Shown: positions 26,360-50,401, numbered from the stretch's first letter. The stretch is 64,000 nucleotides of DNA from a virus (IMGVR_UViG_3300042549_007727); one strand, 5' to 3'. Numbers and translations: made by a program. Notes: generated by a model not told the origin, from the letters alone.

Positions 26360-26368
26360 ACTTCTCTC

Positions 26369-27238
26369 ATGAGGTTTAAAAAGACGCCAGGACCCGGTCC
26401 GCATGTAGAGCTGTTCATAACTAACGCTCAGAAATATTTGGGGTATACTTCAGATCTTGGCGGCCGTAACATCTTTGGTCAAAAGGTTGGTTACGACGCC
26501 GGCCCATGGAGCGGCGCGTTCATTGATGTGGTGGCCCGGGAGTCGGATCTAAACTTTCCATCATTCGTTTATTCTGCGGCCGGCCTGGCTGAATGCATTC
26601 GCACGGGTTCCATCTCGCGAGCGCCTAAACCAGGCGACGTTGTACTCTTCAACTTTTCATCAAACGTTGGACCGGCTGCTGCAGCATTCGGCATGCCACA
26701 CTGTGGGATCGTAACGGACGTCCAAGAATTCACGAAGACCGGCCGGTTCATCACGGTTGAGGGAAACACTGAAGGCGCGTCTACGTTCACAAAGAAAGAC
26801 GGCGTGCATCAGAAGATCCGACATGTAACGGAAGTTTTAATCTTTTGCCGGCCCGCGTTCAGTAACGGGAAGGTCGGATCCAGGAAGACTTTTTACGAAC
26901 GGTTAATGGTTCTGTTCGACGCGGCCCGCACACGTATGACGGTCGCTGAAATGGAAGAGCTCAAAGGAGCGGCGAGCGCGCCTAGTATTCTCCGCCTGAA
27001 CGGAGACATCCGCTATGGGGATAAGAACAAAAGGATCGAGCTAATCCAGCTAGCGCTCGCGACGGTGACGGACCTCAGGGGATGTGAGCCAGGTAGATGG
27101 GATGCAGCAACCGCCGCTGCGTGCAGCAGGTTTCAACGGAACATTGGAAGAACCGGATCTGACGTAACGGGTCTCCCGGATCCAGGTACTTTGAATCGTT
27201 TGTCAAAAGTTAGCGGCGTCTTCAAATTTGACAGCTGA
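26369..27238 (+). CDS. CHAP-domain protein with peptidoglycan-binding domain (catalytic Cys replaced by Ser)
   Basis: PWSGAF in place of PWC..F; PKPGDVVLF, HCGIV, TVEGNT; C-terminal RFQ..IG. Confidence 0.75.
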   Translation: MRFKKTPGPGPHVELFITNAQKYLGYTSDLGGRNIFGQKVGYDAGPWSGAFIDVVARESDLNFPSFVYSAAGLAECIRTGSISRAPKPGDVVLFNFSSNVGPAAAAFGMPHCGIVTDVQEFTKTGRFITVEGNTEGASTFTKKDGVHQKIRHVTEVLIFCRPAFSNGKVGSRKTFYERLMVLFDAARTRMTVAEMEELKGAASAPSILRLNGDIRYGDKNKRIELIQLALATVTDLRGCEPGRWDAATAAACSRFQRNIGRTGSDVTGLPDPGTLNRLSKVSGVFKFDS

Positions 27239-27285
27239 GCTCCTTAGTGCTAGACTTCCATCGTCTATAGAAAGGACAGCTAAAC

Positions 27286-27615
27286 ATGAACAAAGCAGCA
27301 ATTGATTCCTACGTAAGGAACCTCTTCGGCCAGGTTGTTGGAGCAATCATGATTGTTATGCAAACCTCAGGTATTGCATCACCAATTGACTTCGGCACCA
27401 GTGAGTGGCTCCTCGTGGCCAACGCCTTGTGGGCGTCCCTTATCCCAGTGATTCTTCGTTGGGTCAACAAGAAGGACCCAGCATTCGGTGTGGTTGCAGA
27501 AGCTGCGGCCAAGGAAGTTTCAAAGAAGCTTTCCACTGCAGCGGCGAGCGCTAAGAAAAAGCCAGCTGCAAAGAAGGCTGTTGCTAAGAAGAAGCCGGCG
27601 GCCCGGAAGAAGTAA
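27286..27615 (+). CDS. Holin-like membrane protein with a K/A-rich tail
   Basis: SY.R...A..PV.LRW.N..DPAFG; two TMs; directly follows the CHAP gene. Confidence 0.65.
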   Translation: MNKAAIDSYVRNLFGQVVGAIMIVMQTSGIASPIDFGTSEWLLVANALWASLIPVILRWVNKKDPAFGVVAEAAAKEVSKKLSTAAASAKKKPAAKKAVAKKKPAARKK

Positions 27616-27722
27616 CTTTTAACGAATCATAAGAAGCCGGCCCGGTTCAATGTAACCGCGGTCGGTTTTCTTTTTTCTAGAATGAACTTGACAAATCAAA
27701 ACCGGCATGCTACCGTGCAAGA

Positions 27723-28127
27723 ATGAATCTTTATACATACAGAGTTATACGGGAAGTCGCTTTAGATTTCTATAGAGAGAACGGCATGGAAGTCCACTTT
27801 GACCCAGAGCTGTTCAACGGCGTGCTTGTAGTACAAGCGCCGGACGAGGAAACCTCGGACCGCATACGTAGCACATTCACGGACATAAGGATGTGGGAAA
27901 AAGTAGAAGATGAAGAAGATGAACTCGAGTCTCTAACGGAGGAAGAGTTTGCTGACAAATTAATTGCGTCTAGTATTTTGAGCGAAACCGCTAAAGAAGA
28001 TTTGCAAGAAATTAATCCAGACATTAGAACGGCAATTGAAAGACTTATAGCCGACGGCGAGCTTATGGAAGAAAACGGAAGGTATCGCCTCACGGAAAAA
28101 GGAAAGAATTCCCTAAGAGATAAGTAA
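27723..28127 (+). CDS. Hypothetical protein with a winged-helix-like C-terminus
   Basis: TTGACA promoter; L...G......GRYRLTEKG. Confidence 0.55.
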   Translation: MNLYTYRVIREVALDFYRENGMEVHFDPELFNGVLVVQAPDEETSDRIRSTFTDIRMWEKVEDEEDELESLTEEEFADKLIASSILSETAKEDLQEINPDIRTAIERLIADGELMEENGRYRLTEKGKNSLRDK

Positions 28128-29007
28128 CTTGACAAATGCCGGCGTGCGCGCTATAGTAACTCTTATGAATGAAACATGCGAGCTCTGCGGAGCAACGGGT
28201 AAGGGAACAACGGCGTGGGGTGGCTGGTGCCACGACTGCGATAATCAAATGTCGGAAGCAGGTAACTAATGAACAACAACATGGAGCTAGAGCTCACCAG
28301 AAGCCAAACGGAGAGCTTGATGTTTACTCTCATGAGGATTCTTTTTGACAAGAAAACCGAGCTAACCGAAGCGGCTCGCGCAGACCTAAACTCTATTTAC
28401 GGAAGACTGGTCAATGAGCTTGAGCTTACAAAAGACTAACGGCGCGCCTAAGGCGTGGCTGTGTTCACGCGCTAACGGTTCGGATGACGGCGTGCGCCGT
28501 TTGTCGCACGCTAGTTGCGTCTGCGATGCGTACTACATGTTCAAGTGCTCCGACTGTGGAGACTGCACCCAGTGCACGGATGAGTACTACATGGTTGAAG
28601 ACGAGGTCTGGTACTCAGCGATAACCGCTAGAAGCAAACCAGCAATACTTTGCATTGGTTGCCTGGAGTCGCGCCTGGGCAGACTTTTGACGAAAGATGA
28701 TTTCTCAGACGCGCCACTGAATTCCATGCCATTCTGGCCAAGGTCCGAAAGATTGTCGGCGCGCCTAAATCAATAGTTGCGTTTGTCAGTTACATGTGCT
28801 ATAGTCCAAGTACTAAATAGGAAAGGACACAATGACAGAGAAATCTTTCAATGTCAGTTTTATAACAGACAGAGTAATAGTTAGCACAACAGTCGAAGCT
28901 GATAACGATACAGACGCCCATAACAAAGCCCTAGAGGAAGTTAGGTATTACTTAGGGCTAGACCTAGTCCCTGTTCGTTATCAGATAGAAGTAGAGAAGG
29001 TCTAACA

Positions 29008-29337
29008 ATGATTAGATACCAAACAACAGCTAGTTTTAGTTTTTCAACCAACATTAGACCCGAGCTGGGATTAGAAAAAGAAACCCGCGAAGTCATAAGA
29101 TACCTCATAGAAGAAGAGGGTATTGATTCCTTTTTGGATAAATTAGAGTATGGAGATGTTGAGCAGATAGAAGTCAGTGAAGAGGACATGGACGCTACCC
29201 AAGATAGCGACTTACTAATTCCAATGGACAAAGTCAAAGAGATGTTCACAGCTGTGTCCCTAGGAATCCTTGAGGTAGAAGGACTGACCAAGGAAGAAGC
29301 AGAAGAGGCACTAAAAAGATTTCCAAAGGAACAGTAA
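29008..29337 (+). CDS. Acidic hypothetical protein
   Basis: ORF track. Confidence 0.6.
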   Translation: MIRYQTTASFSFSTNIRPELGLEKETREVIRYLIEEEGIDSFLDKLEYGDVEQIEVSEEDMDATQDSDLLIPMDKVKEMFTAVSLGILEVEGLTKEEAEEALKRFPKEQ

Positions 29338-29895
29338 ACACGCCCATAGATTGCTTGACAAATTTTTAGAATTATGCTACGTTTGTCCTATCAAACAGAA
29401 AGGGGAAGCCACATGGACTTCTATGGAAACCCAGAAATCAAAAAGGCCTATCAGGCCGGCTTCAATGATGGACTCCAATGCGGAGTAGATAATGCACGAG
29501 AGTTCGAATACATTACTGAAGAGCAGGCAGAAGATTTGCTGACTGAACTAGTGAAAGAGGAAAACTAATTATGACAATGGACGAACTGATGGAATACGTT
29601 TTGAGGGAACTACCTGACGCCGTTTTTGGTGAGGACAATGCATCAGGCGAGATTGTTATCGCGACAGGTCTCATAGAAAAATCTGATGGCGAGCCACTAG
29701 AAAGAATTGAGGACTAGTCATGGCGCTTAGTCACAAAGAGTTCACCCAGATAATGGAAGAACTAGAACGAATTGAAAACGAGCCAGCCACAGAGTGCGCG
29801 TGCCGTAACTGCGCCGAGGTCGAGCTTTACAGCAGACTTTATTGCAGAGACTGCTATGACATGGCTTGCTCAAAAACAGACGAGGACATGCACTA

Positions 29896-30369
29896 ATGGG
29901 ACTAGACATGTATCTAGAAGCTAGACGTTTTGTCAGCGGATGGAGTCACACCAAGGAAGAAGAGAAAGCAATCTTTGATTCTCTAGTGAAGGCAATCAAC
30001 ATGGACGGCCTGCATGATGAGAGATTTGCCACGGTAAACGTGAACGTCGCTTATTGGCGTAAGGCTAACCACATCCACAACTGGTTCGTGCAGAACGTGC
30101 AAGACGGCGAGGATGACTGTAAGCAATACCACGTCACTCGTGAAAAGTTGTTAGAGCTTGAGCAACTTTGTAGAGACGTTTGTCAGGCCGGCACGGCTGA
30201 TGTGGCGAGCGCGAAGTTGCCTCTTGCAACGGGGTTCTTCTTTGGGTCAGACCAGTATGACGAATACTATTTCGAGCAGACCGACTGGACAGCCAAACGG
30301 ATTGCCGAGCTAATGATAGCTATCCCAGATGACGGCATGCTGGACTTCTACTACCAGTCAAGCTGGTAG
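29896..30369 (+). CDS. Conserved phage protein (MGLDMYL...YWRKAN.IH.WF family)
   Basis: Recognisable N-terminal and YWRKANHIHNWF motifs; start at ATG 29896. Confidence 0.7.
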   Translation: MGLDMYLEARRFVSGWSHTKEEEKAIFDSLVKAINMDGLHDERFATVNVNVAYWRKANHIHNWFVQNVQDGEDDCKQYHVTREKLLELEQLCRDVCQAGTADVASAKLPLATGFFFGSDQYDEYYFEQTDWTAKRIAELMIAIPDDGMLDFYYQSSW

Positions 30370-30849
30370 GCCTGCGTAGCTAACGGCGAGCGCATCCCAA
30401 ATCAACGGCGTGCGCTCGCTGTATGCTATACTCATGCGCTCAATAGAACTGCACCACTTTCAGACCGATAGGGACGTAGAGCTTGCTCTAACCTCTGGAC
30501 TAGCACTGCCAGAACAGCTAGCCATGACGGACTGCACTGAGTGCGACGCAAGACTGTGTTACTCAGTCTCAGACTCGAACTTTGTACCATTTGTACTAGT
30601 GATTGATGAAAGCGACCAAGATTGGGTTCTATGCGAAGATTGCGCAAGCCCAATACTTACGCTGACAGACACCTTTTTCCCCCCAGCAGTGGGTAGCCAC
30701 TTTTCTGATTACGAGGATTTTGAGCCTTTTTGATGTATCCACTTTTTACGACAAGGTAGACACGCCCTAAAAATACTCGTCAAAAGAACTTGCGAAATGT
30801 CAGTAGACCCCTGTATAGTTGGACTTACCAATGAAAGGGGAAATACCAA

Positions 30850-31368
30850 ATGGGTATGGATGTTTATGGCAAGAAACCAACCAACGAGGTTGGCGAGTAT
30901 TTTCGCAGAAATGTTTGGGGTTGGCATCCTCTATGGGATTATGTAGAGAACAATCACCCAGAGATTGCGGAGTTAGTTGAACACGCTCACAGTAATTCTG
31001 GAGATGGCTTGGATGAGGAGAACTCAAAAAAGTTGGCACAACTTTTGATGAACGACTACAACTCATCTAAAGTTATTGACTATGTTGATGAGCGTAATCG
31101 TCAGCTTTCAGAGCTTCCTTTTGAGGATTGTCAAATCTGTAAGGGAACAGGAATTAGAAGTGATGAACTCGGCGTTGAAAGTGGCTGGACAACTAGAGAA
31201 CTAGCACCAGACATAGCAATCATTGTTGGTCGCACTCATGGTTCTTGTAATGCTTGCCAAGGAGTAGGCAAGCGAGAGAACTGGGCTACCAACTATTTCC
31301 TAGAGCCTGACGACATAAAAGAGTTTGCCGAGTTCCTTGAGAACTGCGGTGGCTTTGAGATTTGCTAA
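30850..31368 (+). CDS. Phage protein with DnaJ-type CxxCxGxG zinc finger
   Basis: CQICKGTG and CNACQGVG. Confidence 0.7.
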   Translation: MGMDVYGKKPTNEVGEYFRRNVWGWHPLWDYVENNHPEIAELVEHAHSNSGDGLDEENSKKLAQLLMNDYNSSKVIDYVDERNRQLSELPFEDCQICKGTGIRSDELGVESGWTTRELAPDIAIIVGRTHGSCNACQGVGKRENWATNYFLEPDDIKEFAEFLENCGGFEIC

Positions 31369-31793
31369 GGGGGTTTAGAAAATGGAAAAACTTTTTTGCT
31401 TTAGTTGCGAGGACGAACTTACTGCGAAAAACACTTCGTCTTACGAGGGGTTTGACAGTTCGGGCTATCTAGTAGCTAACAGGATTGCGAAAATTGGTAA
31501 GGACATGTTTATCAAGTGTGACCCATGCTTTGATGCGGACATTGACAATTACCTAGACAATCTCCAAAGCTAAGACCTAGGGAAAGACCCCTGCCTAGCA
31601 GGTTCAACGCCCGAAGCAACCTGAGCCAAGTTGTAAAACTGGCTCACTAAATCTTTCAGGGGCGTGTATCCACTTTTTACCTGGGACCCCCCGAAAAAAC
31701 TTTTTACGAAATAAGTTTGACAAAAGATGAAAAGTATGGTTTACTTCTTACATGGCAAAAAGCCATAGACACAACAAGGAAAGGGGGAAGTCA

Positions 31794-32399
31794 ATGACTT
31801 CCACAGCTACACCAAAGATTGTAGGCAAGGCACTCTACCTAGAGCTAATTGCCGACAACACCATAGACGCAGACAAGCTAAGAAAAGTCTTGGGTTGGCA
31901 ACACGCAGGCACAAGACAGATAATTATTTTCCCAGAGTATCAAGACGATACAGGGAAAGTTTGGGGTTCAGTAGTTATGAATCGCATTATCTCTAGTCAC
32001 TCACCTAGAAGCCAATGGGACATTACTTTTATTGACAGGTATAGACCAAACATAGGTGCGTTGAGGGTGGACGACAGTTATCACAACTACCCAGAATACG
32101 AGCGTCCAGTTTGGGACACACTAACAAATAAAGAGAAGTTTGATTCTCACAAGTTGGCGTTGGATTCAACCTTGAGAAAAATTATTTTGTCAAGTGATTC
32201 CGAAATAGATTCAACTGGCAATAGAAAATTGACAGCCCTACAAGCCTTGAGGGTTAGAGATAACAAGCCAATCGCAGTAGAGATTACTGACGAGGACATG
32301 GTTGAACTTCACATGAAGTCAAAAACTCCACAGGCAGTAATTCGCAGAATCAACAAGGTTCGTGAATCCATTTCTAGTTTCCCAGCGAAACTCGCATAA
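31794..32399 (+). CDS. Hypothetical protein upstream of the AAA+ ATPase
   Basis: AAAGGGGG RBS before ATG 31794. Confidence 0.7.
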   Translation: MTSTATPKIVGKALYLELIADNTIDADKLRKVLGWQHAGTRQIIIFPEYQDDTGKVWGSVVMNRIISSHSPRSQWDITFIDRYRPNIGALRVDDSYHNYPEYERPVWDTLTNKEKFDSHKLALDSTLRKIILSSDSEIDSTGNRKLTALQALRVRDNKPIAVEITDEDMVELHMKSKTPQAVIRRINKVRESISSFPAKLA

Positions 32400-32441
32400 C
32401 CTAAAAATAGATACAGACACAACAAAGAAAGGGCGGAAGCC

Positions 32442-33503
32442 ATGTATCAACAAAAAGTAATAGCAGAACACACAGCACCAGACCTAGCAGGAATCAACTA
32501 TGACCAACTGTTAGAACAACTTGTCGGGGCAGTAAGGGGTTCAAGTTTCGGAGTGACAACTTCAATTCTTGACGAACACCTAACACCAGCAGGTAGAGCA
32601 ACACTACGCACTAAAGGTAAAGCAGGTTCAACACTTTCAACTCCAGCTAAACTAGATGAAGCAGAGCCAGCGAAGCTAGAGGAAGTTATGGAATCAGTTG
32701 CGAACTTAGAGGGAGAGGAATCTTACTCACGACCTAATGGCGACCTTTACTATGGTCGCAAGTGGGGCGACAATGTAGATGTTGAAGTTCTACGCAAAGC
32801 CAGAGAAGCAGGACAGTATGTAATGCTCTATGGAGTTCCTGGAACTGGAAAGACAGCGTGCGTTGAAGCTGCTTTTCCAGATGAACTTTACACAGTTCTT
32901 GGTTCTGGCGACACCGAAGTTTCTGACTTGGTAGGTGGCTATGTCCAAACTCCAAGTGGCGGTTTTGAGTGGGTGGACGGAAGTTTAGTAAAAGCAGCTT
33001 CCGAGGGTAAAGTTCTACTGATTGACGAAATTGGTTTGATTGACCCGAAAGTTCTTTCGGTTGTCTATGGACTAATGGACGGCAGAAAAGAAATTACAAT
33101 CACACAGAATCCAGAGCGAGGCACAGTAAAAGCTAAGGAAGGATTTTTTGTAGTTTCGGCAACTAACCCTAATGTCGCAGGAGTTCGTTTGTCAGAGGCA
33201 CTTCTATCTCGTTTCGCTATTCAGGTTGAAATGACTACTGATTGGAACTTGGCTAGGAAACTTGGAGTTCCGCAGAGTGCGGTTGTTGCTTCACAGAATC
33301 TAGCAAAGAAACTAGAAAATGGTGAAACTTCTTGGTCGCCACAAATGCGAGAGTTGCTTGCGTTCCGTGACTTGTCCAAAATGTTTGGAACAAAGTGGGC
33401 AGTCCAAAACTTGCTTGCTTCCGCACCAGAGATTGACAGACCAATCGCTAGTGATGTATTCACCAGAGTATTCGGAGAGGCAATCCTGCCAGCAAAGATT
33501 TAG
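32442..33503 (+). CDS. MoxR/CbbQ/CobS-like AAA+ ATPase
   Basis: GVPGTGKT Walker A, LLIDE Walker B, ATNP, ALLSRF. Confidence 0.92.
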   Translation: MYQQKVIAEHTAPDLAGINYDQLLEQLVGAVRGSSFGVTTSILDEHLTPAGRATLRTKGKAGSTLSTPAKLDEAEPAKLEEVMESVANLEGEESYSRPNGDLYYGRKWGDNVDVEVLRKAREAGQYVMLYGVPGTGKTACVEAAFPDELYTVLGSGDTEVSDLVGGYVQTPSGGFEWVDGSLVKAASEGKVLLIDEIGLIDPKVLSVVYGLMDGRKEITITQNPERGTVKAKEGFFVVSATNPNVAGVRLSEALLSRFAIQVEMTTDWNLARKLGVPQSAVVASQNLAKKLENGETSWSPQMRELLAFRDLSKMFGTKWAVQNLLASAPEIDRPIASDVFTRVFGEAILPAKI

Positions 33504-33634
33504 TGAGTGGGTTGTGTCCTCACTAAAGGGTGGGGAAACGCAAGGTTTTTTCTTGTTTGATTTGACTTGCGTTTCTCCCCCAACTACTATACAATTTAGA
33601 CATAACAAAAAAACGCCAAATGAAAGGGAAGCAA

Positions 33635-35488
33635 ATGGCACACTACAAAGTAAAAGGTAAGTCAAGACTTACAACACGAACAACTACAACCAACCCAGAG
33701 TGGCTAAGAGTTTGTTCACAGATTGGTCGCTTGGTCAATGATTGGTCATGGCGTTCAGATTTAGTTGTCTATGGTGGAGAGGATTCTGCCGAGGGCAAAG
33801 CTATCGCTGCTTTTTATTCAGACATAGCAGAGATTGAAGTGAACTTGCCGAAAGCGTTTGGAGAACTTACGCCAGCAGATTTTGTCGGCGACTTGACTAA
33901 AAAAGAAACGCAGTATGAGTATCCAATGGTGACAGGCGTTCTGTATCACGAAGCACTACACGCACGCCACACGAATTGGGACACTTCAATTTTGTCAGAG
34001 GCACTAGACCCTAATGAGCAAAGAGCTTTTATGTTGCTAGAGGAATCACGAATTGAAGCAAAGGGAATCAAAGAGCGACCAGAGCTTAGAAACTTCTTGC
34101 GTGCTTCTGCTTTAGACATGGCACTAGACGAAGTGACTACAGACACACTCGCAGGTTTGGCTAGTGATGTTTGGAATACAGCACGCCTAGCAGGACTTTC
34201 AGTTTCAAGAGTGGATTCAGGAGTTCTTGAAGTTTCTGACATTACTGACATTTACAGAGAAGTAGTTTCAGTTCTTGGTCAGGACTTGTTTGACGAACTA
34301 AGAAAAGTTTGGATTGAGTTTCAGGCACTAGGCGTTCCACAGATTGAGCGAGCTATTGAACTTGCTAAGAAGTGGGTTGAACTATTGCGTGAATCAGACC
34401 CAGAGGGCGAGCCAGATTCAGGTTCGGCAGGTGACATTTTCGGCGAGCCAGATGAATCAGAGGGCGACAGCGAGGGTGGAAGCGGAAGTGAACTGTCTGA
34501 CACCATGAAAGACATGATTGAAAAACTTTCCGAATCTGCTAGTCACTCGGAGATAGAAGCGAGAGAGGCACTTGCCCAACAAGAGCAACAAGACAAGTGG
34601 GGCGAGGAATCAAAAGCAAGGCAAGAGCAAGCAAAGAATAACAACCAACGCAAAAACATAGCCAAGCAAATCTTTCACAAGCCACACTCCCAAGAGGGTT
34701 CGGGTTCTAACTCGTCTGTATCCTCTCGCAGACAGCCGACAGGGACAGAGCGAGCAAGTGCGGTAGAGATTGCTAAGTCATTAGACAAGGCAAAGTATCG
34801 TGAGCGTTCGGTTCATGTTCGCAAAAGTCAGACACCACAGGGCAAGCTGATTATGAGAAACGCCGTCCAGAATAGGGCAGTTGAATCTATTGGCAAGCGT
34901 GGAGAGTTGCCAGCGTGGAAGTCAAAGACACGCAAGCACACAGACGACCCAACGCTAAGGCTTGGAATCATGGTGGACATTTCAGGTTCTATGGGTTCTG
35001 CTATGGAAGCTATGGGACAGACAGCGTGGATTATGTCCGAGGCAGGTCGCAGGATTCAAGCTGAAACGGCTATGGTGTATTACGGCTCTGGCGTGTTCCC
35101 AACTCTAAAGCGTGGACAGCGTTTGAGCGAGGTGACGATTTACACAGCACCAGACGGAACTGAAAAGTTTACCGAAGCGTTTGAAGCGATTGACGGCGAG
35201 CTTGGACTAACTTTTGGGGACGGCGTGCGTATGTTAGTTGTTGTGTCGGACGGAAACTACACAGGCACAGAACTACAGAGAGCAACCGAACTACTAAGAG
35301 AGTGTAAACAAAACGGCGTGGCGGTTCTTTGGATTACACCGAGAGGTTGTAATGGCATGGGGGCGAGGTCAATAATTTCTGGTTCGGCGTGGGGAGTTCA
35401 CTTGGACGACCTAGACACAACGGAGATTGCGAGGCAAGTCGGCAAGTCGGCAAGCGAAGCATTGGGTCGGGTGGGTTCACTCACCTAG
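33635..35488 (+). CDS. vWA-domain partner protein with N-terminal HEXXH domain (CobT-like)
   Basis: HEALH motif, EESRIE, acidic linker, MIDAS DISGSM, VVSDG. Confidence 0.88.
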   Translation: MAHYKVKGKSRLTTRTTTTNPEWLRVCSQIGRLVNDWSWRSDLVVYGGEDSAEGKAIAAFYSDIAEIEVNLPKAFGELTPADFVGDLTKKETQYEYPMVTGVLYHEALHARHTNWDTSILSEALDPNEQRAFMLLEESRIEAKGIKERPELRNFLRASALDMALDEVTTDTLAGLASDVWNTARLAGLSVSRVDSGVLEVSDITDIYREVVSVLGQDLFDELRKVWIEFQALGVPQIERAIELAKKWVELLRESDPEGEPDSGSAGDIFGEPDESEGDSEGGSGSELSDTMKDMIEKLSESASHSEIEAREALAQQEQQDKWGEESKARQEQAKNNNQRKNIAKQIFHKPHSQEGSGSNSSVSSRRQPTGTERASAVEIAKSLDKAKYRERSVHVRKSQTPQGKLIMRNAVQNRAVESIGKRGELPAWKSKTRKHTDDPTLRLGIMVDISGSMGSAMEAMGQTAWIMSEAGRRIQAETAMVYYGSGVFPTLKRGQRLSEVTIYTAPDGTEKFTEAFEAIDGELGLTFGDGVRMLVVVSDGNYTGTELQRATELLRECKQNGVAVLWITPRGCNGMGARSIISGSAWGVHLDDLDTTEIARQVGKSASEALGRVGSLT

Positions 35489-35844: not shown

Positions 35845-36195
35845 ATGGCTAAGGTCATTTCCCGAACAGCCCCAGAGGTTGCGAAAGCAACTCCAAAGGT
35901 TGTCAAAGTTTCACGAAAAGTCGTGGAACTAATCAGCGAACTTTCCGAAGTTCGTGCTACATACAACTCGGCGAAAGCCAGAGTTGAGGAACTTCGTGAC
36001 GAAGTTCTTTCCCAAGTTGGGCGTTCCAATTTGACCCTTGTCCACAACAGCATTGAGGTCGCTCGTATCGTTGAGAGTTCTCCTGTGCGTGTAGATGAGG
36101 AGTTCTTGAAAGAGAACTATCCAGAGGCTTACCAAGCTTCTCTAAGGGCAAAGCCCCAACACACGATTCGCTCTGTCACACGCAAAGCGAACTAA
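35845..36195 (+). CDS. Hypothetical protein, paralog of 43591..43932
   Basis: Shared EL.EVRA...L.HN.IE.ARI...D.E.L...YPEA pattern. Confidence 0.7.
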   Translation: MAKVISRTAPEVAKATPKVVKVSRKVVELISELSEVRATYNSAKARVEELRDEVLSQVGRSNLTLVHNSIEVARIVESSPVRVDEEFLKENYPEAYQASLRAKPQHTIRSVTRKAN

Positions 36196-36357
36196 AGAAC
36201 TGGGCGGGCAGGGCGAAAGCCCTGTCCCCCATTTCATTTTTTATTTGACCTGACAATGTATCCACTTTTTACCAAAGGAAATGGACACGGAAAAAAGATA
36301 CCGAAAATGTCAGGGACTATGCTAAGATTGGAACTACCACAAAGAAAGGGGAACACC

Positions 36358-36708
36358 ATGAGAGGCGAGCCATTAGAGCTTGACGAAGTTGCTGGATTAT
36401 CTCTAACAGTATTGGGCGTGCTTGTTGAGGCATACATCAAAGAGGGATACAGCGACCCGACAATGTATAGAGCAATACGGGCTTCAACCGAACTGGCTAA
36501 AAACTTCAAGGCACGGCTAGAACTAGACGGACGGGACACGGACGGCGTGGACGACTTGATTACTAACCTAGAGCTAACGGCTATGGAATCTGGCGAGGTA
36601 GTAAACCGAATCATAGAGCAGAACGGCTGGCAAGAAACGGCTGGCGAGTGGAGTAGCCCTGCTAGTATGACTTGTGATAACGACTGCGAACATGACGGCA
36701 AGGAGTAG
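36358..36708 (+). CDS. Hypothetical protein
   Basis: AAAGGGG RBS before ATG 36358. Confidence 0.65.
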   Translation: MRGEPLELDEVAGLSLTVLGVLVEAYIKEGYSDPTMYRAIRASTELAKNFKARLELDGRDTDGVDDLITNLELTAMESGEVVNRIIEQNGWQETAGEWSSPASMTCDNDCEHDGKE

Positions 36709-36715
36709 GGACGGC

Positions 36716-37015
36716 ATGGACTTTCAGACTGCGTTCGGCGAGGTTGTGCGTGAGCAACGGCGTGCTAATGAGATTACAATGCGAAGCGTGACGGATAGGG
36801 GACACCTAGCGTTGGGATACCTGTCCGAAGTGGAACGGGGACACAAAATGCCCTCTAGCCTAATAATTGCGTCCATAGCAGACGGACTGGGTATAGACGC
36901 AAGCGAGCTGATTATTCAGACGGGTATGCGTATGTCCAATGTTCCTGAAAGCCCTGAAAGCCTGTTCAAGCTAAGGGACAGAGATTGGGCTAATCAGTAT
37001 TCAGATTTGAGATAG
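36716..37015 (+). CDS. XRE-family HTH regulator, ClgR-like
   Basis: GEVVR..R....T.R.V.....LGYLSEVERG.K..SS matches the actinobacterial ClgR signature. Confidence 0.75.
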   Translation: MDFQTAFGEVVREQRRANEITMRSVTDRGHLALGYLSEVERGHKMPSSLIIASIADGLGIDASELIIQTGMRMSNVPESPESLFKLRDRDWANQYSDLR

Positions 37016-37017
37016 AG

Positions 37018-37051
37018 AAAGCCCCCCTGACAAAAGTTAGGGGGATTTTTT
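37018..37051 (+). terminator. Intrinsic terminator (cassette end)
   Basis: CCCCCTGAC-AAAA-GTTAGGGGG followed by a T-tract. Confidence 0.8.
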
Positions 37052-37162
37052 CTTGGCTGGTAGTGTATCCACTTTTTGCTGAACATTTTTTGTTTGGTTT
37101 TTGTCGGGGGTAGGGTATAGGATTTGATTGTTATAAAAACTCCAACAGGAAAGTAGGGGAAA

Positions 37163-37399
37163 TTGAGTTATTATCCAGAGGGTTCTATGGCTGGTTCTGG
37201 CATAGATTCCGTAGAAGTTCCGTATGACGAGTTTGTCTGCGAAGCTGACGATTGTGGCAAGGTGAACGAAGCTAGTGAAGCTATGACAGACGACTATGGC
37301 AATTACGAAGTTGAGTGCCAGTTCTGCGGTAGCTTTTACTTTAGAAGTTCTATTGCCGAGGACAAGGCAGATTGGGCAGCGAATAATTATGATTACTAA
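37163..37399 (+). CDS. Small Zn-ribbon protein
   Basis: C....C...CxxC; AGGGG RBS. Confidence 0.6.
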   Translation: MSYYPEGSMAGSGIDSVEVPYDEFVCEADDCGKVNEASEAMTDDYGNYEVECQFCGSFYFRSSIAEDKADWAANNYDY

Positions 37400-37739
37400 T
37401 CCAAAACAGGGGACACCAATAAAAAACAGCAAGGGCGAATTACGATACGAATACACTTGCCCGAAGTGTTTTGACGAATACAGGGTGGACGAAAAGACAC
37501 ACGCTTGGATTCAGACCTTAGACAGACTGCCTAAGTGTTCGCCTTGCTACTTGTAGCCTAAAAAGTTTCCCCCGAATAATCAGGAACAGCGATTCCGATT
37601 CGGGGGATTTTTTTATGCCGTCAATGTGTATCCACTTTTGCTGCGGCAGGGTAAAACTTTTTATGTGCGGTGAAAAGTCGTAGGTAGGTGATAGTATTCA
37701 AGTATCAAGCAACACTAACCACGAACAAAGGGGAACAAG

Positions 37740-38051
37740 TTGAAAAGATTGCCTAACTACAAGATTGGCGCGGAGATTAGTGCGCTAAACACTTTCACGA
37801 ACTACAATGGCACAATTAGCGCCGTTCGGGACGAGAATAATTACAGGATTACACACTGGAACACTGTAATTCTTGATTACAACACTGACACCAACGAGAT
37901 TATTTCGCTACAAGATAGCTACATTAGCCAGACAACCAGCGCGCTAGTTGGGCGAATCTTGAGGGCGTTGCCATACGCTTCGGTTGAAAGATACTTGGGC
38001 TACATGACGCCGTCAAAAGATAAGCGCCGTTTGGTCGGTATGCTTCGATAA
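37740..38051 (+). CDS. Hypothetical protein
   Basis: AAAGGGG RBS; terminator follows. Confidence 0.65.
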   Translation: MKRLPNYKIGAEISALNTFTNYNGTISAVRDENNYRITHWNTVILDYNTDTNEIISLQDSYISQTTSALVGRILRALPYASVERYLGYMTPSKDKRRLVGMLR

Positions 38052-38192
38052 AAAGCCAAAAAGTTAGCCCCGCTTCGGCGGGGTTTTCTTTTTCCGTGAA
38101 AAGTTGCGCCGGTCGCGGCGTGTATCCACTTTTTGATGAAAGCTTTTTGCGGATCCTTGATCTGTATAATTGTTGATGAAGGGGGAACACCA

Positions 38193-38507
38193 TTGAATAA
38201 TTTCTCAGAGCGAATCATTGCCAATACCGAAGATGGACGCCGTGAAGTGCGCGTCCTGCGTCTTGCGGTAAGTCTTGGCGACGACTTGGCATACATTGAT
38301 TGGGAGCCAAGCGGGGAGCTTTACTTTATCAAAGTCCCCGTCGAGTATCGCCGTCAAGGAATCGCTACAAAGCTATGGCAGGACGCTCAGGAACACGCGA
38401 GAAGCTTGAACTTGCCCGCGCTAACCCATAGCGAATACAGAACTGACGCGGGCGATTCTTGGGCTAAGTCCCTAGGCGAAAAACTTCCACCAAGAATCCG
38501 CGCTTAG
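38193..38507 (+). CDS. GNAT-family acetyltransferase
   Basis: V..EYRRQGIAT.L acetyl-CoA motif A; AGGGGG RBS before TTG 38193. Confidence 0.7.
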   Translation: MNNFSERIIANTEDGRREVRVLRLAVSLGDDLAYIDWEPSGELYFIKVPVEYRRQGIATKLWQDAQEHARSLNLPALTHSEYRTDAGDSWAKSLGEKLPPRIRA

Positions 38508-39190
38508 TTTTTTGTAGCCAGGTGTATCCACTTTTTGACGAGGCGACACGCTTGCTTGCGGGTTCTTGCTTTTGTCGGTGGGTTGGGGTAAAGTCAAACT
38601 AACCAAGCAAGAGGGAAGGAAACAAAATGATTGGTAGAAACAAAGATGCGGAAACAGCTTTTGATATGGCAATGAAGTTGCTGAACAACCCAAGTGAGGA
38701 AGTTCAACAGCAAGTCTGGGACAAGTGCCACGCTGACGAAGTAATCCAAAGGTCGGTAAGGCTTTACCTTTACAGCGAGCCAAGCTACACACCAAAGGCT
38801 CTATACAACCTTCACCAAAAACTCGCCGAGTTGGTGTCCTAATGGTTGTTCGCCCGCTGGAGAATACAGTTTGCTATCAATGCCCTAAGAAGATTATGGC
38901 AATGGTTGGTGCGGTTCACCCGCTATGCGTTGAGTGTCAAGAAAGTTTTGACGATTGGTTTGAACACGAGCTAGGAGTTTTCAATGGCTAAGCAAGTTTA
39001 TTTTGTTGTTGCGGTGGACTTAGATGAGTGCGTGCCGTTTATAGATGATGACACCTTTACAGCAAGGTTCAGTTCGGCAGAGCAAGTTTGGGACACCGAA
39101 CTACAAGAGTGGCAAGAAGACCCTGACCAAGAGTTTTACGATAAAGCGTTGAAGATTTTGAACACCATACCTTTAGCGAAAGACTAGTCA

Positions 39191-39502
39191 ATGAAACACA
39201 AAAAGAGTAAAGTTCAAGGCAAGTCTAGGCACGCCGAGTATCTTCGCCGAGTAGATAACGCCGATAGAGTTGCGGTAATGCTAAGGGGCATAACTTTATT
39301 TTGCGCTTTTATTTTTGTAATGAGGATAGTCGCTGGCGTTGATTCAGTTTCAGAATACCTAATCCTTTATGCGGTTGTGTTTGTGGGCGGGGTTAGTGCT
39401 TCGCTTGCCGAATACTTTTTGTTTAGGGCTTACCAAAGTCGCTACTCAAAAAGTCGCCGACAAAGTTTTTGGGATTTGTTCAACACCGAACTTTCCAAAT
39501 AA
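39191..39502 (+). CDS. Two-TM membrane protein
   Basis: Two hydrophobic segments. Confidence 0.6.
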   Translation: MKHKKSKVQGKSRHAEYLRRVDNADRVAVMLRGITLFCAFIFVMRIVAGVDSVSEYLILYAVVFVGGVSASLAEYFLFRAYQSRYSKSRRQSFWDLFNTELSK

Positions 39503-39640
39503 AACTTCCCGCTAGGACTTCCCCCCTAGCGGGATTTTCTCTTTCCAGCTGCGTATCCACTTTTTGATAGAGATTTTTTTGTGTGCGTTTTGTCGGTGGA
39601 CTATGCTATGGTTGAAGTATCCAAACAAAGGGGAAGTAAA

Positions 39641-39832
39641 TTGAAGACAGATTCAAGAATAGCAATAGTTTCAGAGCTACCAAACTGCGACTTCTGCGGT
39701 GAACACGCTCGCTATGACGGAGCAACCAAACTTGGACCTTGGGCTTTTATGTGCCAGAAGGACTGGGTATCTCACGGAGTAGGGCTTGGGCTTGGCAAAG
39801 GTCAAGTTCTAATGAAGGAAGGAACTAAGTAA
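39641..39832 (+). CDS. Small Zn-binding protein
   Basis: CDFC....YD..T..GPWAFMC...GLG.G.GQ. Confidence 0.65.
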   Translation: MKTDSRIAIVSELPNCDFCGEHARYDGATKLGPWAFMCQKDWVSHGVGLGLGKGQVLMKEGTK

Positions 39833-40204
39833 ATGGCGACAACAGTTGGAGAGCTGATTGAACAGCTAAAGACGCTGGACCCCGACACAACAGTTGTGTT
39901 TCAGTATTTGACACACGAACACACCGACTTTTCAATTGACGATTTTGAGTCAAAAGCCGAGGCACTTGACTACACCAACTTCGCTGATGAAATGTCTATC
40001 ACGATGAACGAGTGGCTCGCCGAAATGGAGTAGCCACGCGACACCAAAGATTCCCCCGCGACCCCCGCGGGGGTTTTCTTTTTTGCCGGAAGGTAGCCAG
40101 GTGTATCCACTTTTTGATTCGGCTGCCGAAAGGGTTTTGTAAAAGTATTTGCTTTTTTCTTTTTGTGTAGTAAGATGAAACTCTAACGAAAGGGAGGTTC
40201 CTAA

Positions 40205-40597
40205 ATGGGAGCAAGAACAACTTGGAAAATAAAGACTAATGATTCGGGAGCTATTACTTGGCTTTACAGTCATTGGGGAGGCGACAGTAAGTTTGACACC
40301 ACTAAAGAGGCGTTGGACTTGGCTATGCCTCGCTGGGAGGATAGGACTTATGGAGCTAGGATTTTTATCAGTAGCGTAATTGGTAATTCTTGGAGTTCAC
40401 AGACAGGGTTTGGAATTACTTCAACCCTTGACACAGATTCCAACCCGTTTGAGGAAAGCTACACGCCTTACACAATTGACTTTGTGCGGAAAGTAGTGAT
40501 TCTTGAAGGTGTTCTCGGAGAGGACTGGGAGTTAGGCTTTGACGAGTTCACTAGACTAAACAGCGAAGCCGACTTGCTACTTCAAGGGACAAGGTAA
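40205..40597 (+). CDS. Conserved phage protein (MGAR...LYSHWGG family)
   Basis: GGGAGG RBS and motif. Confidence 0.65.
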   Translation: MGARTTWKIKTNDSGAITWLYSHWGGDSKFDTTKEALDLAMPRWEDRTYGARIFISSVIGNSWSSQTGFGITSTLDTDSNPFEESYTPYTIDFVRKVVILEGVLGEDWELGFDEFTRLNSEADLLLQGTR

Positions 40598-40879
40598 ATG
40601 GGAAACTTACAAGCTCAAGAAATTGCGAGCAACACCGAAATTACACTTGAACAGCAACTAACTTGGCACTTACAAGGTAATCACTATCCACCGATTCCAG
40701 TTAGTATGGTTCAGCCTTGTGTTGAAGCAATTCAGGCTTATTGGGAAGATGAGCTAGACACGGAGATTCAGTTGCCCGAAGGTGTTTTGTATCGGGGGAA
40801 GGAAACAGCCCCCGCTAGAGAAATAATCATCAATCATCACTTAGACGCTTGGTGTCAAGATGACGAAGATGAGTTTTAG
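40598..40879 (+). CDS. Hypothetical protein
   Basis: WHL.GNHYPP.P motif; coupled to the previous gene. Confidence 0.65.
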   Translation: MGNLQAQEIASNTEITLEQQLTWHLQGNHYPPIPVSMVQPCVEAIQAYWEDELDTEIQLPEGVLYRGKETAPAREIIINHHLDAWCQDDEDEF

Positions 40880-41935
40880 GATTAGCCCCAACTAACCCCC
40901 CAAATGCGGGCAATAGAGAGATTCCCCCTTTCTATTGCCCGTTTTCTTTGCGTGCCGGTAAGGTATCCACTTTTTACTGGGCTTGATTTTCTTTTTATGA
41001 AATACTTGTTTTTCTTTGTTAGTGTGTTATTGTTTATCTGTTGGGAAGTTCCCGACAAGAAACAAGAAAGTTGGGCAGAGAAGTGAAGTTTGTAATTAGG
41101 AGAGCAGTCTTAGGGTTGGTGGCTTTGCCAGTAATCGCTGGGACTTATGTTTTTATGTTTGTATTGCTAGGTTCGCTAAACAATACTTTATGGGGACTAA
41201 CCCTAGATGAAGTTTGGAATAACGGACTTTTGATTGGTTCGGTTAGTGCGGTTGCTTTCGCTTTCGCAACTCAGATTGACAAGCTAATTGCTAGATTGGT
41301 TGGTGAATAATGACTATCATTGTAATCAACCTAGACGGCTCAAGAACGCCTTACGGCTATTCGGCTCACTCATCAGACATCACCGATTACTATGACCGCC
41401 TAGTTGCGGAAAATAGAATCACCGCCTATGAGGTGATTTCCTAATGGGAGATTTTATTCTATTAGCGTTTGCTATCGGACTTATCTTTGGTGGCTTTACT
41501 CTTATGTTTTACAGTTTACTAACTGTAAAAAGAGATAACTACCGACCGAAGCATACACGCTCAACATACCTGCCCAACAGGAAAAGATAGTTCCCCCAAC
41601 TATCGGAAAGCCCTCGCCTTTGTGCGGGGGTTTTCTTTTTTCTGTTTTTTTTTTCTGACGAGAGCTGGTATCCACTTTTTGATGGAAGTTTTTTCGGCTT
41701 CCGTTTTGTCGGGCATTTATGCTAGTGTTAGAGCTACCAATTAGAAAGGTTATCAAATGGGAAAGTTAGTTGCAGAGCTAGGAACAAAAAAAGTCTTATC
41801 TCTAGTTGAAGGCGAAACAACAGTTTCGGCTTACTTACTCACGGAGAGTGAAGAGTTTCTTGCTGTCCTAAAGAGTGCCGACAGTCTAGAGCAGGTTCTA
41901 GATTGGGTAGAAGAAAACTACTAGGAAGGTAGAAA

Positions 41936-42286
41936 ATGAAATTAGCTCTAAAGATAACGCCAGATGGCGTAGCAACTGAAATTGACATAGCCACGGACGA
42001 ATTGAAGAAACTACAAGACGCGGTTGATGGTCTAATTCAACCCGTTGATTTTGAGTTCGGCTCTAGGTATTTGACAATGTGGGTGAATGAAGAAGGACTA
42101 CTTAGAAACGATTTGGAAATGAATCCTGTCGCCTTTCTGTTTTACTCTTCACCGATAATGGGAAACATTATCATAACTGGCGCGCCAGATGAAGATGGCG
42201 AAACAACAAGCCTAGACAGCGCGACAGAGTTAGATGTTCTAAAAAGGATTTGTGAAAAGTTCCTAAGTTCTGTTGAACAAGTCTAA
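41936..42286 (+). CDS. DUF3846-like protein
   Basis: L..LQ.AV.G.I..V...MWVNEEG......N..A. Confidence 0.7.
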   Translation: MKLALKITPDGVATEIDIATDELKKLQDAVDGLIQPVDFEFGSRYLTMWVNEEGLLRNDLEMNPVAFLFYSSPIMGNIIITGAPDEDGETTSLDSATELDVLKRICEKFLSSVEQV

Positions 42287-42458
42287 ATAAAAAACTAAAG
42301 CAACCCCGCCTTTGCGCGGGGTTTCTTTTTATCTTCCGTAAAAAGTCTGCCGTCAACTGGTATCCACTTTTTGATGCCTCTCTTAGTTGCGGTTGCTTTT
42401 TTCTTGCGTTTGTGTTATCTTGATTTGGCTTATAGCAACACTTAGTAGAAAGAGAAAA

Positions 42459-43397
42459 ATGAAAAGACAAATTAGTATCGCGCTCGCGGTGGCATTGCTT
42501 GCCGTTGGGACTACCCCCGCTAGCGCTGGAGTTCAAGGTGAAGTTAGTTCTTGGGGTCTAGATAGAGTAGACCAAACAGCGGGAACAGCAACACTAGATA
42601 GAAGCTACAAATACCCCGACAGCGCTGGCGCTGGAGTTCGCGTGTATGTTTTAGACACGGGAGTTCTTGGAACGCTACCTGGTTTCGGCGGGAGAGTTCT
42701 TACAGGGTTTGACACTCTCGCGGGACTTAGAACGCCACATCAGGCTAATCTTGACTGTAATGGTCATGGAACAGCCGTAGCTGGAATCATTGCTAGCGCG
42801 ACTTATGGAGTAGCTAAGAGCGCAACCATTGTGCCAGTTCGCGTTGCGGACTGTAAAGGTGGAATAGTTCCTGCCAACATTGTCAAGGGAATTGACTGGA
42901 TAATCAAGAATCACCCGCGCGGTACCCCTGCCGTTGTGAATCTAAGTATCGCGGTTGGTAAGACTAAGTTGGTTGATGACGCGATTACAAAACTCTACGG
43001 GATTGGTATAGTTTCAGTAGTTTCCGCTGGTAATCAAAACATAGACGCTTGTCGTCTAAGCCCCGCGGGAGCAACATACGCCCTTACCGTTGGGTCTATA
43101 AACATGAACGACCAAAGAACAAATACTTCTAACTTTGGCGAGTGTGTTTCTATGTACGCCCCTGGTGGTTTGATTACTACCGAGGGAACAAATGGTTTGC
43201 CCTCAACAAGAAGCGGAACATCTTTTTCCGCGCCTCATGTTGCTGGAGCAATAGCCTTGTATCTTTCAAGCAACCCTAAGGCAGACGCCCCCGCGACTGT
43301 TTGGGAGATTACAAGAAATGGTTTGAGTGGAGCTGTTGCTGACGCTAAGAGCGTTAGAGGCAATGTTCTACTCAACACCGCCTTTCTAAACAAGTAA
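42459..43397 (+). CDS. Secreted subtilisin-like (S8, proteinase K/aqualysin-type) serine protease
   Basis: Signal peptide; WGLDR.DQ; LDTG, HGT.VAG and GTSF.APHVAG triad motifs. Confidence 0.92.
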   Translation: MKRQISIALAVALLAVGTTPASAGVQGEVSSWGLDRVDQTAGTATLDRSYKYPDSAGAGVRVYVLDTGVLGTLPGFGGRVLTGFDTLAGLRTPHQANLDCNGHGTAVAGIIASATYGVAKSATIVPVRVADCKGGIVPANIVKGIDWIIKNHPRGTPAVVNLSIAVGKTKLVDDAITKLYGIGIVSVVSAGNQNIDACRLSPAGATYALTVGSINMNDQRTNTSNFGECVSMYAPGGLITTEGTNGLPSTRSGTSFSAPHVAGAIALYLSSNPKADAPATVWEITRNGLSGAVADAKSVRGNVLLNTAFLNK

Positions 43398-43409
43398 GCA
43401 ATAAGCAAA

Positions 43410-43442
43410 GACCCCCTGCCGTAATTGGCGGGGGGTTTTTTG
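43410..43442 (+). terminator. Intrinsic terminator (cassette end)
   Basis: ACCCCCTGCC-GTAATT-GGCGGGGGGTTTTTT. Confidence 0.8.
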
Positions 43443-43590
43443 CTAGCTGAAGGCGTGTATCCACTTTTTGACCTGTTGAAAAAACTTTTGCGGAATTGCT
43501 TGTTTTATCGGATTAGTATGCTATGATGATTACATCATCAAAAGATGATAATCCAAGCAACAAAAGCAACACCTAACAAAGGGGAATAAG

Positions 43591-43932
43591 TTGACAACAT
43601 CAACAACAACCGCAACAACAACCGCAACCAAGGCAACAAAAGTTGTTCTAGGACAAGTTCGGGAATTGACTGAGGTTAGGGCAGAAATTGCCAGACTGGA
43701 AAAACTAAAGTTGGCTCTCACCGCTGAAATTGAAAAGGCTTTTGAGGTTGACAAAGAAGCAAAGACCTCACGCTTTTCAACCCTTACTCACAATGCCATA
43801 GAGTTCGCAAGAATTGACTGGAGAAGCCGTAAGGGTATTGACTCAGAGAAGTTAGCCCTAGAGTTTCCTGAAGCGTTTGAGGCTTGCCAGAAGCCAACTG
43901 TTTACTCAGTAATAGTTTCCTTGTTCAAGTAA
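43591..43932 (+). CDS. Hypothetical protein, paralog of 35845..36195
   Basis: Shared motif; AAAGGGG RBS. Confidence 0.7.
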   Translation: MTTSTTTATTTATKATKVVLGQVRELTEVRAEIARLEKLKLALTAEIEKAFEVDKEAKTSRFSTLTHNAIEFARIDWRSRKGIDSEKLALEFPEAFEACQKPTVYSVIVSLFK

Positions 43933-45313
43933 AAGGGAGAGAGAAGCCCCCGCCGAAAGGTTGGGGGCTTTTCTTTTGCCAAAAAGTTTTACGGCGACTC
44001 GCGGGCTGTATCCACTTTTTGATTAGTCTTCCAGGTGTATCACGGGCTTAGGCTTTTTGTCTGTGGCAAATAGTATGCTAATGATTACTAGCCAATTGGT
44101 TAGTAGTTGGGCAACAATTATTAGTTTGGAGAATCATGAACATTAGTTCAGATACAAGGTCAACGCAAGAGTTGACTGTTGCGCTTATGGCACTAAACAC
44201 TACAACCCTTATTCCAACTGGATACGGGGTATCTCAGGACTGTGCAACAGCTATTGAGTTCTTGAAGCAACGCTCAGAACAGATGGCTAATGTTGCTAAG
44301 GAAATTGAGAAGCTACTAGGGGGAGTTCACCGTGGCTAAGTTTGTAATCACTAATGGCAGAGTTGGTAATGACAACGGTAATCAGCAATTTGTAGAACAC
44401 GCCTATTATCACCCTATGGGCAGGAAAGCCCTATTGAACAAGATTCAAGACCTAGCTAATAGAAGCGGATTAGAGTCTTGGGCAGAGCTATACACGGAAT
44501 GGAAAGATGAGAATAGGACTGGCAAAACACCGAATCGAATCTTCCCTAGAAAGCCGTATTCAACTTACTAACTAGATACCTCAGTAAGTAATGACCCCCT
44601 AGCTATACGGTTGGGGGGTCTTTGCTATGCGGTATGCGGTTGAATAGTTTGGATTCATGAATGCTTGATCATGCGGATAGCAAAAACAATTATTGAATTA
44701 GTTTTTTGATAGATCAGGTTGACCCCCCCATGAAATAAGCCAAAAATAATTAGCGGGCGGGCGGGCATACCCCCCTCAGAAACTTATAGTTAGTAATAAA
44801 CTTACTTAGGTCTTTTCTAGTTCTTTCAGCTAGCCCTCATAGACGCCCCCCTGTAAGCCTCACTAGAAAGACACCCAACTTGGACAGCTAATGCTAGACG
44901 CCCCCTCAGAGTAGTAGTCATAGATTCTAAAGTCATGACCCCCTAAGAAAGACAACCTTGTCTTGTAAAGTTCTTAGTAATCTAGTATCCTTGACAATAG
45001 ATAGTAATTTTTATTTTTCTAGCTTGAAGCAAGGACTAATTTTTATAAAGAACAATTTTGTATGGCGTATTCAACAAGAATTGTTTTTGGAAGACCCCTT
45101 CACTTTTAGGAAACAATTTTGAAGTCCTTCAATTTCATACGGCTACCCTCTCACCCGTCAAAAGCAGTAGACGCTAAGGTACTAATTCTTCCGTTACGGA
45201 CACCCCCCTCTTTTTAAAAAACGCAATTACCCCCTGCCCCAAAACGACAAAAAATCCGGAAAAAATTTTTCAAAAAAATTCGTCCAATAGCCCGATATCT
45301 ACATAGTGCTAAA

Positions 45314-46804: not shown

Positions 46805-46815
46805 TTAGGACGAGA

Positions 46816-48590: not shown

Positions 48591-48600
48591 GGAGCAACAA

Positions 48601-50398: not shown

Positions 50399-50401
50399 AA
50401 T

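Follow-up and report, generated by a model that had tools for sequence, protein, structure and literature searches.

The 64,000-nucleotide stretch of viral DNA IMGVR_UViG_3300042549_007727, referred to here at its full length as the window, carries a block of small co-directional genes between about 27.2 and 45.2 kb from which most four-base palindromes have been lost. The source of the window is a tailed phage of Actinobacteria with a genome of about 150 kb. Scans with the PHROG and Pfam families identified a large terminase, a portal protein, lysins, two tRNAs and many small open reading frames (ORFs). The portal shared 74% identity with that of Actinomycetia phage DSL-LC01, a 129-kb metagenome-assembled genome from a lake, and 59-64% identity with the portals of Microbacterium phages of 186-195 kb. 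More than 590 related stretches were found in IMG/VR. When the block and the structural region were compared by megablast with 50,697 phage records, nothing matched.

Palindrome loss and the cassette array

In the present study, all 16 tetranucleotide palindromes were counted in 2-kb bins, and the gaps between sites were measured. The original prediction had described a stretch that lacked GATC apart from two sites, and this gap was reproduced: the last site before it lies at 27179, it is interrupted only at 38152 and 38159, and the next site is at 44667. From the rate seen in the window outside the block, 58 sites would be expected in place of these 2 (log10 P = -22). The absence of TTAA was likewise recovered, with zero sites from 28012 to 45214 against 97 expected (log10 P = -42), and ATAT occurs once between 26434 and 45295, where 62 sites would be expected. 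ACGT and GGCC had 37 and 36 expected sites in their own gaps, and the depletion of these five words reached log10 P values of -15 to -42. Moreover, eight palindromes (ACGT, CCGG, CGCG, GCGC, GGCC, GTAC, TCGA and TGCA) all have their last sites before the gap within 30188-30642 and are then absent for 7-15 kb, the words CCGG, CGCG, GCGC and TCGA up to 37.7-38.1 kb and the words ACGT, GGCC, GTAC and TGCA up to 41.8-45.9 kb. The simultaneous loss of many palindromes, first seen by eye, was therefore confirmed by counting: between 30.7 and 37.7 kb, 12 of the 16 tetranucleotide palindromes stand at zero, and the survivors are AATT, AGCT, CTAG and CATG, plus 7 TATA.

The shape of the block was also as described previously. 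The right edge is abrupt (44.67-45.3 kb), the left edge descends in steps at 26.4, 27.2, 28.0 and 30.2-30.65 kb, and the adjacent DNA from 24 to 27.2 kb contains about twice the window-average density of GATC. In the outer zone at the left edge, GATC, TTAA and ATAT are absent, the other palindromes are present, and CGCG and GCGC are locally enriched. The depletion is local and not genome-wide, as had been proposed, with normal counts at 1-26 kb and 45.3-64 kb and a single block in a complete 154-kb relative, in which genome-wide loss is limited to GATC and CCGG.

The loss extends well beyond uninterrupted tetramers. Among interrupted palindromes in the block, GGNCC was observed 3 times against 40 expected, GCNGC 9 against 51, CCNGG 8 against 32 and GTNAC 13 against 32. 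The same was seen with asymmetric words, including GTCTC/GAGAC (0 observed, 26 expected), GTAAC/GTTAC (0 and 18), GAATG/CATTC (2 and 25), GAGTC/GACTC (4 and 30), GCATC/GATGC (4 and 25), GGATG/CATCC (3 and 18) and GAAGA/TCTTC (17 and 66). In addition, hexamer palindromes built on the tolerated cores were reduced (33 against 87 expected, 20 words pooled). No purge of dinucleotides or trinucleotides was detected in the block, which indicated that the signal is specific to words of 4-6 bp, of the kind recognised by Type II/IIS enzymes; a purged di- or trinucleotide context was rejected as a candidate on the same ground.

The prediction had named statistical significance as a check, and the depletion withstood it, both in the outside-rate statistics and in shuffles in which synonymous codons were permuted among 25 block genes, so that the proteins and the block's own biased codon pool were kept. 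In these shuffles, 12 palindromes amounted to 340 +/- 17 sites (minimum 291) against 65 observed, and 14 asymmetric 5-mers to 98 +/- 8 against 13 observed. The 65 remaining sites are mostly CGCG, GCGC and TATA within a few cassettes. A cause unrelated to restriction, be it codon bias, the avoidance of structure in DNA or RNA, or the level of expression, is hardly credible on these data. The composition of the block is slightly shifted, with TA and AT at 0.8 of the outside rate, which would agree with such an origin. However, shuffles with the block's own codon pool brought the words back, and codon bias was rejected as the cause for this reason. Furthermore, asymmetric words unable to form hairpins are purged while terminator hairpins abound in the block, and the purged list resembles a catalogue of Type II/IIS specificities and shifts between close lineages. 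The purge covers both coding and non-coding DNA. It is very probable that the block was shaped by selection against restriction targets.

The deep part of the block is coextensive with an array of the 13-mer GTATCCACTTTTT, of which 14 copies are exact and 2 near. A search of the window with this word gave 17 matches against 2.3 expected by chance, and none lay on the plus strand outside the array. Each copy is preceded by a G+C hairpin with a T-run, typical of a terminator, and is followed about 60 nt downstream by a nearly invariant TAnnnT -10 element, after which come a leader and a purine-rich ribosome site, and then a single small gene or a few of them. Each copy thus stands between a terminator and a -10 element, which makes the block an array of small-gene expression cassettes; each unit was found to have its own host-type promoter, as would be anticipated for early genes, and its own terminator. 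On the evidence of its sequence, this layout is that of a host-takeover or pre-early module that would be read by the unmodified host polymerase. The 13-mer itself is likely to be the site of a phage-specific factor, since the motif differs between lineages. The coordinates of these features and of the neighbouring genes are collected in Table 1.

Table 1. Features of the block and its surroundings in the window
Feature	Position	Strand	Basis or remark
356-aa conserved protein, small ORF, endolysin	24942..27238	+	GATC-rich, unpurged
Outer, partial avoidance zone	27179..30650	+	about 10 small genes without the 13-mer
Deep purge block	30650..45214	+	12/16 tetranucleotide palindromes at or near zero
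Array of 16 copies of GTATCCACTTTTT (14 exact, 2 near)	30693..44020	all +	word search
AAA_5 (MoxR/CobS-like) ATPase, most conserved gene of the block	32442..33503	+	Pfam
622-aa partner protein, weak VWA (CoxE-like) C-terminal match	33620..35488	+	Pfam/PHROG scans
HTH_3 (XRE-type) regulator, inside the block	36674..37015	+	domain match
GNAT acetyltransferase cassette	38122..38523	+	domain match
DUF3846 protein, acidic, net charge -13	41936..42286	+	domain match
Peptidase_S8 (subtilase), signal-peptide-like N-terminus	42387..43397	+	domain match
Non-coding boundary, 740 nt, end of purge	44572..45313	.	C-tract repeats and TAGACGCCCC copies
Packaging module, normal composition	45314..52836	+	PHROG/Pfam
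HTH protein	45314-45832	+	
NlpC/P60 protein	46052-46804	+	
sigma70_r4-type HTH, possibly small terminase	47997-48590	+	orthologue of last A3Wally repeat gene
Large terminase	48989-50398	+	
Portal	51088-52836	+	

Few products of the block could be assigned to a family. The AAA_5 ATPase is 79-83% identical in three relatives (L081, L082 and L083) and 71% identical in DSL-LC01, where the homologue of its VWA-like partner is annotated as a CobT-like 'cobalamin biosynthesis protein'. The GNAT cassette carries both GATC sites of the block together with five CGCG, three GCGC and one TCGA, has a -10 element of the TGTATAAT type, and has no orthologue in the same three relatives; it is probably a recent acquisition that has not been purged so far. 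The S8 cassette tolerates 13 CGCG and 8 GCGC, and these two purge-breaking cassettes look like recent arrivals. The remaining products are orphans, many of them small and very acidic (isoelectric point, pI, 4.1-4.5). A literature search on DUF3846 was uninformative, and the first gene of the block fell only into clusters of 'hypothetical viral protein' in the protein Atlas.

The block ends in a non-coding boundary, which is a candidate terminus, repeat boundary or region resembling an injection stop. Copies of TAGACGCCCC lie at 44840 and 44895, with further copies at 45472 and 45540, and the word TAGACGCCCCTATT was found at the same place in diverged relatives. The extended form TAGACGCCCC(TATT) was observed just past the right edge of the block in the window (44840-45549), in L009 (1646-2417) and in L090 (13208-13786); it is thus common to diverged relatives, in contrast to the lineage-specific motifs of the array. 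It may function in packaging, at the terminus or as a promoter of a later class.

Three further genes of the window were noted. A serine recombinase with Resolvase and Recombinase domains is encoded at 1430-2125 in a large phage that otherwise looks lytic, and the annotation of DSL-LC01 also includes a recombinase. A full-length protein of the histone-deacetylase family (PF00850, E = 4e-51) is encoded at 21335-22288. Downstream of the true portal, an ORF of more than 1091 amino acids (60727-63999) is open at the window end, and its C-terminal part matches PHROG families of portal, head maturation protease and virion structural protein; this product is probably a large fused minor head protein.

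The block in related phages

The block is a property of a family of phages. The relatives L081, L082 and L083 have VWA genes 74-77% identical to that of the window, and they show the same purge over 12-15 kb, with array motifs of their own (GTATTTATTTTTTGT in 14 copies in L081, and AGTTATTTTTTCTG in 19 copies in both L082 and L083). Orthologues of the outer-zone genes lie directly upstream of the first array motif in relatives. In addition, 15-16 of the 27 portal-anchored relatives with enough upstream sequence have the abrupt edge, which in them lies 5-9 kb before the start of the portal gene. In the complete relative G002 (154,192 bp), there is exactly one block, at about 60-72 kb, which makes up 8% of the genome and is coextensive with the motif array at 59301-71972. 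G002 has no GATC site and a single CCGG site in its whole genome. Avoidance in this phage therefore has two tiers, with a few words lost genome-wide and nearly all words lost in the block.

The words that are tolerated differ between lineages. They are AATT, AGCT, CATG and CTAG in the lineage of the window, mainly CTAG and TCGA in L082, CTAG and TATA in L073, and essentially CTAG only in L056. CTAG is the sole tetranucleotide palindrome that is never purged, in the window and in all related loci, and it occurs at 5.7 per kb outside the block in the window, and the block of L056 has as many as 10 per kb. Of the orthologous AAA and VWA genes, those of the window hold five AGCT and no TCGA, and those of L082 hold no AGCT and nine TCGA. 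About half of the palindrome differences between lineages in these two genes sit in identical amino-acid contexts, from which it follows that the purge evolved in place and is still being re-tuned.

The two halves of the block differ. The left half is collinear between lineages and 74-83% identical, and in the right half the order of the cassettes has been reshuffled one by one. Between 35724 and 44600 of the window, the order differs in each lineage of the L081-L083 comparison, as if cassettes had been recombined at the repeated motif and promoter modules. This shuffling, and the foreign look of single cassettes (GNAT with GATC, S8 with CGCG and GCGC), might suggest that a donor phage with genome-wide avoidance of these words supplied the block as a mosaic import. 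Such an origin is very unlikely. The imported-looking cassettes break the purge and do not create it; moreover, the purge includes non-coding DNA and ends at the same gene boundary in many relatives. The collinear and highly similar left half has palindrome sets that are nevertheless lineage-specific, largely through synonymous change, and import of the whole block was rejected on the evidence of these orthologous genes.

The distribution of DNA-modifying enzymes bears on another explanation, in which the bulk of the genome is chemically protected by phage methylation or hypermodification and the early block is site-free because it is unmodified, or is kept so for the host RNA polymerase. The window does encode an orphan N6/N4 DNA methylase (PF01555) at 4219-4905, which is also present in G004, as well as five 2-oxoglutarate-Fe(II) (2OG-Fe(II)) oxygenases, of which one matches Tet_JBP below the threshold. 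However, one methylase cannot cover at least 12 different words, and a profile search found neither PF01555 nor PF00145 methylases in the complete relatives G002 and G003, both of which have the block. The block also has no purged di- or trinucleotide context that might exempt it from a context-specific modification, and one of the oxygenases adjoins a collagen-repeat protein. Protection of the bulk is thus an unlikely explanation. As a separate observation, five genes in the first 21 kb of the window (3-779, 838-1422, 7214-7849, 8135-8755 and, on the minus strand, 20378-20980) encode a collagen-repeat protein and four of the 2OG-Fe(II) oxygenases.

DSL-LC01 (L084) was examined over positions 1-50000, which contain no ATAT, no TTAA and few AATT. 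An extended -10 promoter, CTAAAGATGTTATAAT, is repeated 16 times where this phage is syntenic to the block.

Terminal repeats and the proposed early exposure of the block

The cultured relatives of the window phage provide a view of the chromosome ends. A3Wally and Pumpernickel, both Microbacterium phages, have exact direct terminal repeats of 15,503 bp and 19,963 bp, respectively, each with about 40-50 small genes on the same strand. The genes at 24942-27238 of the window are orthologous to the first genes of these repeats: both repeats start 62 nt upstream of the orthologue of 24942-26012, which is followed by the endolysin, and both end in a non-coding stretch of about 700 nt, about 630-650 nt past the last repeat gene. 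In general terms, these repeats would support a terminal location of the block, and the reading of the block as first-entering or terminal-repeat DNA is plausible from the sequence.

It has been established that phages avoid restriction sites and that first-entering DNA is their vulnerable part. A cut is lethal wherever it falls on the chromosome. The loss of sites from just one block is then meaningful only if the remaining genome is shielded from restriction during the time in which that block is open to it. First exposure or staged entry is therefore a fairly probable reason for the purge. In the proposed mechanism, selection has removed essentially every 4-6 bp word of the Type II/IIS kind from the array, and part of them from 27.2-30.7 kb, largely by synonymous changes. 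The block would be the part of the chromosome that is first in the cytoplasm and first expressed, and its products, or host shut-off, would then make the cell safe for the remaining genome, much as T5 transfers its DNA in two steps. A long terminal repeat would probably contain the block or be identical to it. The purge, its restriction to words of the restriction type, its overlap with the promoter array, its conservation with lineage-specific spectra and its origin in place were observed, whereas early timing, staged entry, the position at a terminus and the end that leads are inferred.

Several observations weigh against this reading. By synteny with the cultured phages, the repeat would start at about 24.9 kb and would take in 2.3 kb of GATC-rich DNA at 24.9-27.2 kb, which means that the block and that repeat are not simply the same stretch. 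In the cultured phages, the VWA gene is found beyond the terminal repeat, and the terminal repeat of A3Wally was examined for the same purge and showed none. Neither did the first-step-transfer (FST) DNA of T5; that such first-entering DNA is depleted in sites had been taken as established in the original prediction, and this did not hold at the level of tetranucleotides, the palindrome counts of the 10.2-kb FST repeat being normal. Thus, a terminal repeat or a first-step region alone does not yield the footprint. In addition, the syntenic promoter array of DSL-LC01 lies in DNA that shows no block-wise purge, and no recognisable anti-restriction gene was found among the block proteins in the Pfam and PHROG scans and the Atlas. 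Finally, the sharpest edge of the block is on the right, but in four lineages the purge is cleanest in the conserved left half, which fits either entry from left to right, promoter first, or a slower turnover of genes there.

Attempts to place the terminus directly were negative. An exact 38-mer of the window had no match in the viral and metagenome contig collections searched. Positions 24.76-24.95 kb of the window were compared with the ends of the A3Wally and Pumpernickel repeats and bore no convincing resemblance to them, and the contig ends of 80 portal-anchored relatives did not pile up at the block edge. The terminal repeats flagged by IMG/VR are 100-bp assembly overlaps. The last repeat gene of A3Wally corresponds to 47997-48590 of the window, past the block, in a mapping that is imperfect. 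The word GACACGC(C), which occurs downstream of the array motifs of relatives and in five promoter-like repeats within the terminal repeat of A3Wally, was discounted because chance alone makes it too frequent in that GC-rich genome.

A purge confined to the earliest genes would also be accounted for if the whole genome entered at once and cuts in the bulk were survivable, through end protection, religation or recombination-dependent replication by early proteins, so that just the bootstrap region must stay intact. The small size and strong acidity of many block proteins, traits that are common in nuclease inhibitors and DNA mimics, would suit this possibility. On the other hand, no homologues of ligases, recombinases or RecBCD inhibitors were recognised in the block by the Pfam and PHROG scans, and the genome-wide avoidance of GATC and CCGG in relatives demonstrates selection against cutting of the bulk. 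A cut-tolerant bulk is accordingly quite improbable.

Comparison with known phages and significance

Early DNA of other phages offers several parallels to the block. In T5 and BF23, only the terminal-repeat DNA enters first, Type I/II restriction works just on sites in this first-step-transfer DNA, and the transferred DNA is bordered by a long repeat-rich non-coding region (PMC10644984). The block resembles this DNA in that it makes up about 8-10% of a genome of more than 120 kb, contains small genes with host-type promoters and is bordered by repeat-rich non-coding DNA. In both cases, sites are tolerated outside and not inside, which in the window is seen as a compositional footprint and in T5 as functional restriction. 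Moreover, the cultured relatives of the window phage also carry long terminal repeats. However, no homologues of T5 A1, A2 or dmp were found among the block proteins with Pfam and PHROG, and the virus family and the host phylum differ. While the tetranucleotide counts of T5 are normal, 12-15 of the 16 palindromes have been eliminated in the family of the window, for which two-step entry is proposed by analogy.

In Bacillus phage SPO1, the host-takeover module lies in the 13-kb terminal redundancy, and the DNA carries hydroxymethyluracil. Like the block, this module consists of many small genes, each unit with a strong early promoter and a terminator. It lies in a long terminal repeat, as is proposed for the block, and it has no sequence relationship to the block. 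To our knowledge, a purge of sites has not been reported for the SPO1 module.

The early region of T7 encodes Ocr first, and entry of the DNA is driven by transcription. In the window, the block genes are likewise co-directional, and their cleanest part is promoter-proximal. The window scans gave no family match to Ocr or to a phage RNA polymerase, and several very acidic small proteins are present. A point of difference from T7 is that each cassette ends in a terminator. For the Autographiviridae, the early-injected region is reported to govern sensitivity to Type I restriction-modification (R-M) (PMC12455610). The comparison of the block with T7 and these phages rests on a shared idea, namely that success against restriction depends on the DNA that arrives in the cell first.

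Selection of the same kind is known from phages that avoid sites genome-wide, such as GATC-free phages, and is seen in G002 with GATC and CCGG and in the 50 kb of DSL-LC01 with ATAT and TTAA. In phages with genome-wide avoidance, one or a few words are avoided over the whole genome, whereas here nearly the whole repertoire of short words is avoided mostly in one block. Our literature search found the T5/BF23 and Autographiviridae precedents and no description of a block-wise, near-total purge. In relation to the searchable literature, the new element is a near-total purge of a block that is tied to a promoter-cassette array, occurs family-wide and has lineage-specific spectra. Its scale, with up to 15 of the 16 tetranucleotide palindromes eliminated over several kb, is far beyond the FST DNA of T5, which shows no such signal.

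In conclusion, we tentatively propose that a large family of phages of 125-155 kb that infect uncultured Actinobacteria may stage the delivery or exposure of its chromosome independently of T5. Its pre-early module would be a terminal repeat kept free of nearly all short restriction targets, the word lists would read out the restriction repertoires of the hosts, and the block would be expected to encode a broad anti-restriction or host-shut-off function. If this reading is true, the purge marks the phage DNA that is exposed first, and staged entry and pre-early modules would be findable by sequence in uncultured phages, for which infection experiments are impossible. Candidates for the anti-restriction or shut-off function would be limited to the few dozen small genes of the block. 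Furthermore, since close lineages differ in the words that they purge or tolerate, setting these lists against the methylomes and R-M genes of actinobacterial populations may help in pairing phages with hosts and in measuring restriction diversity at the population level.

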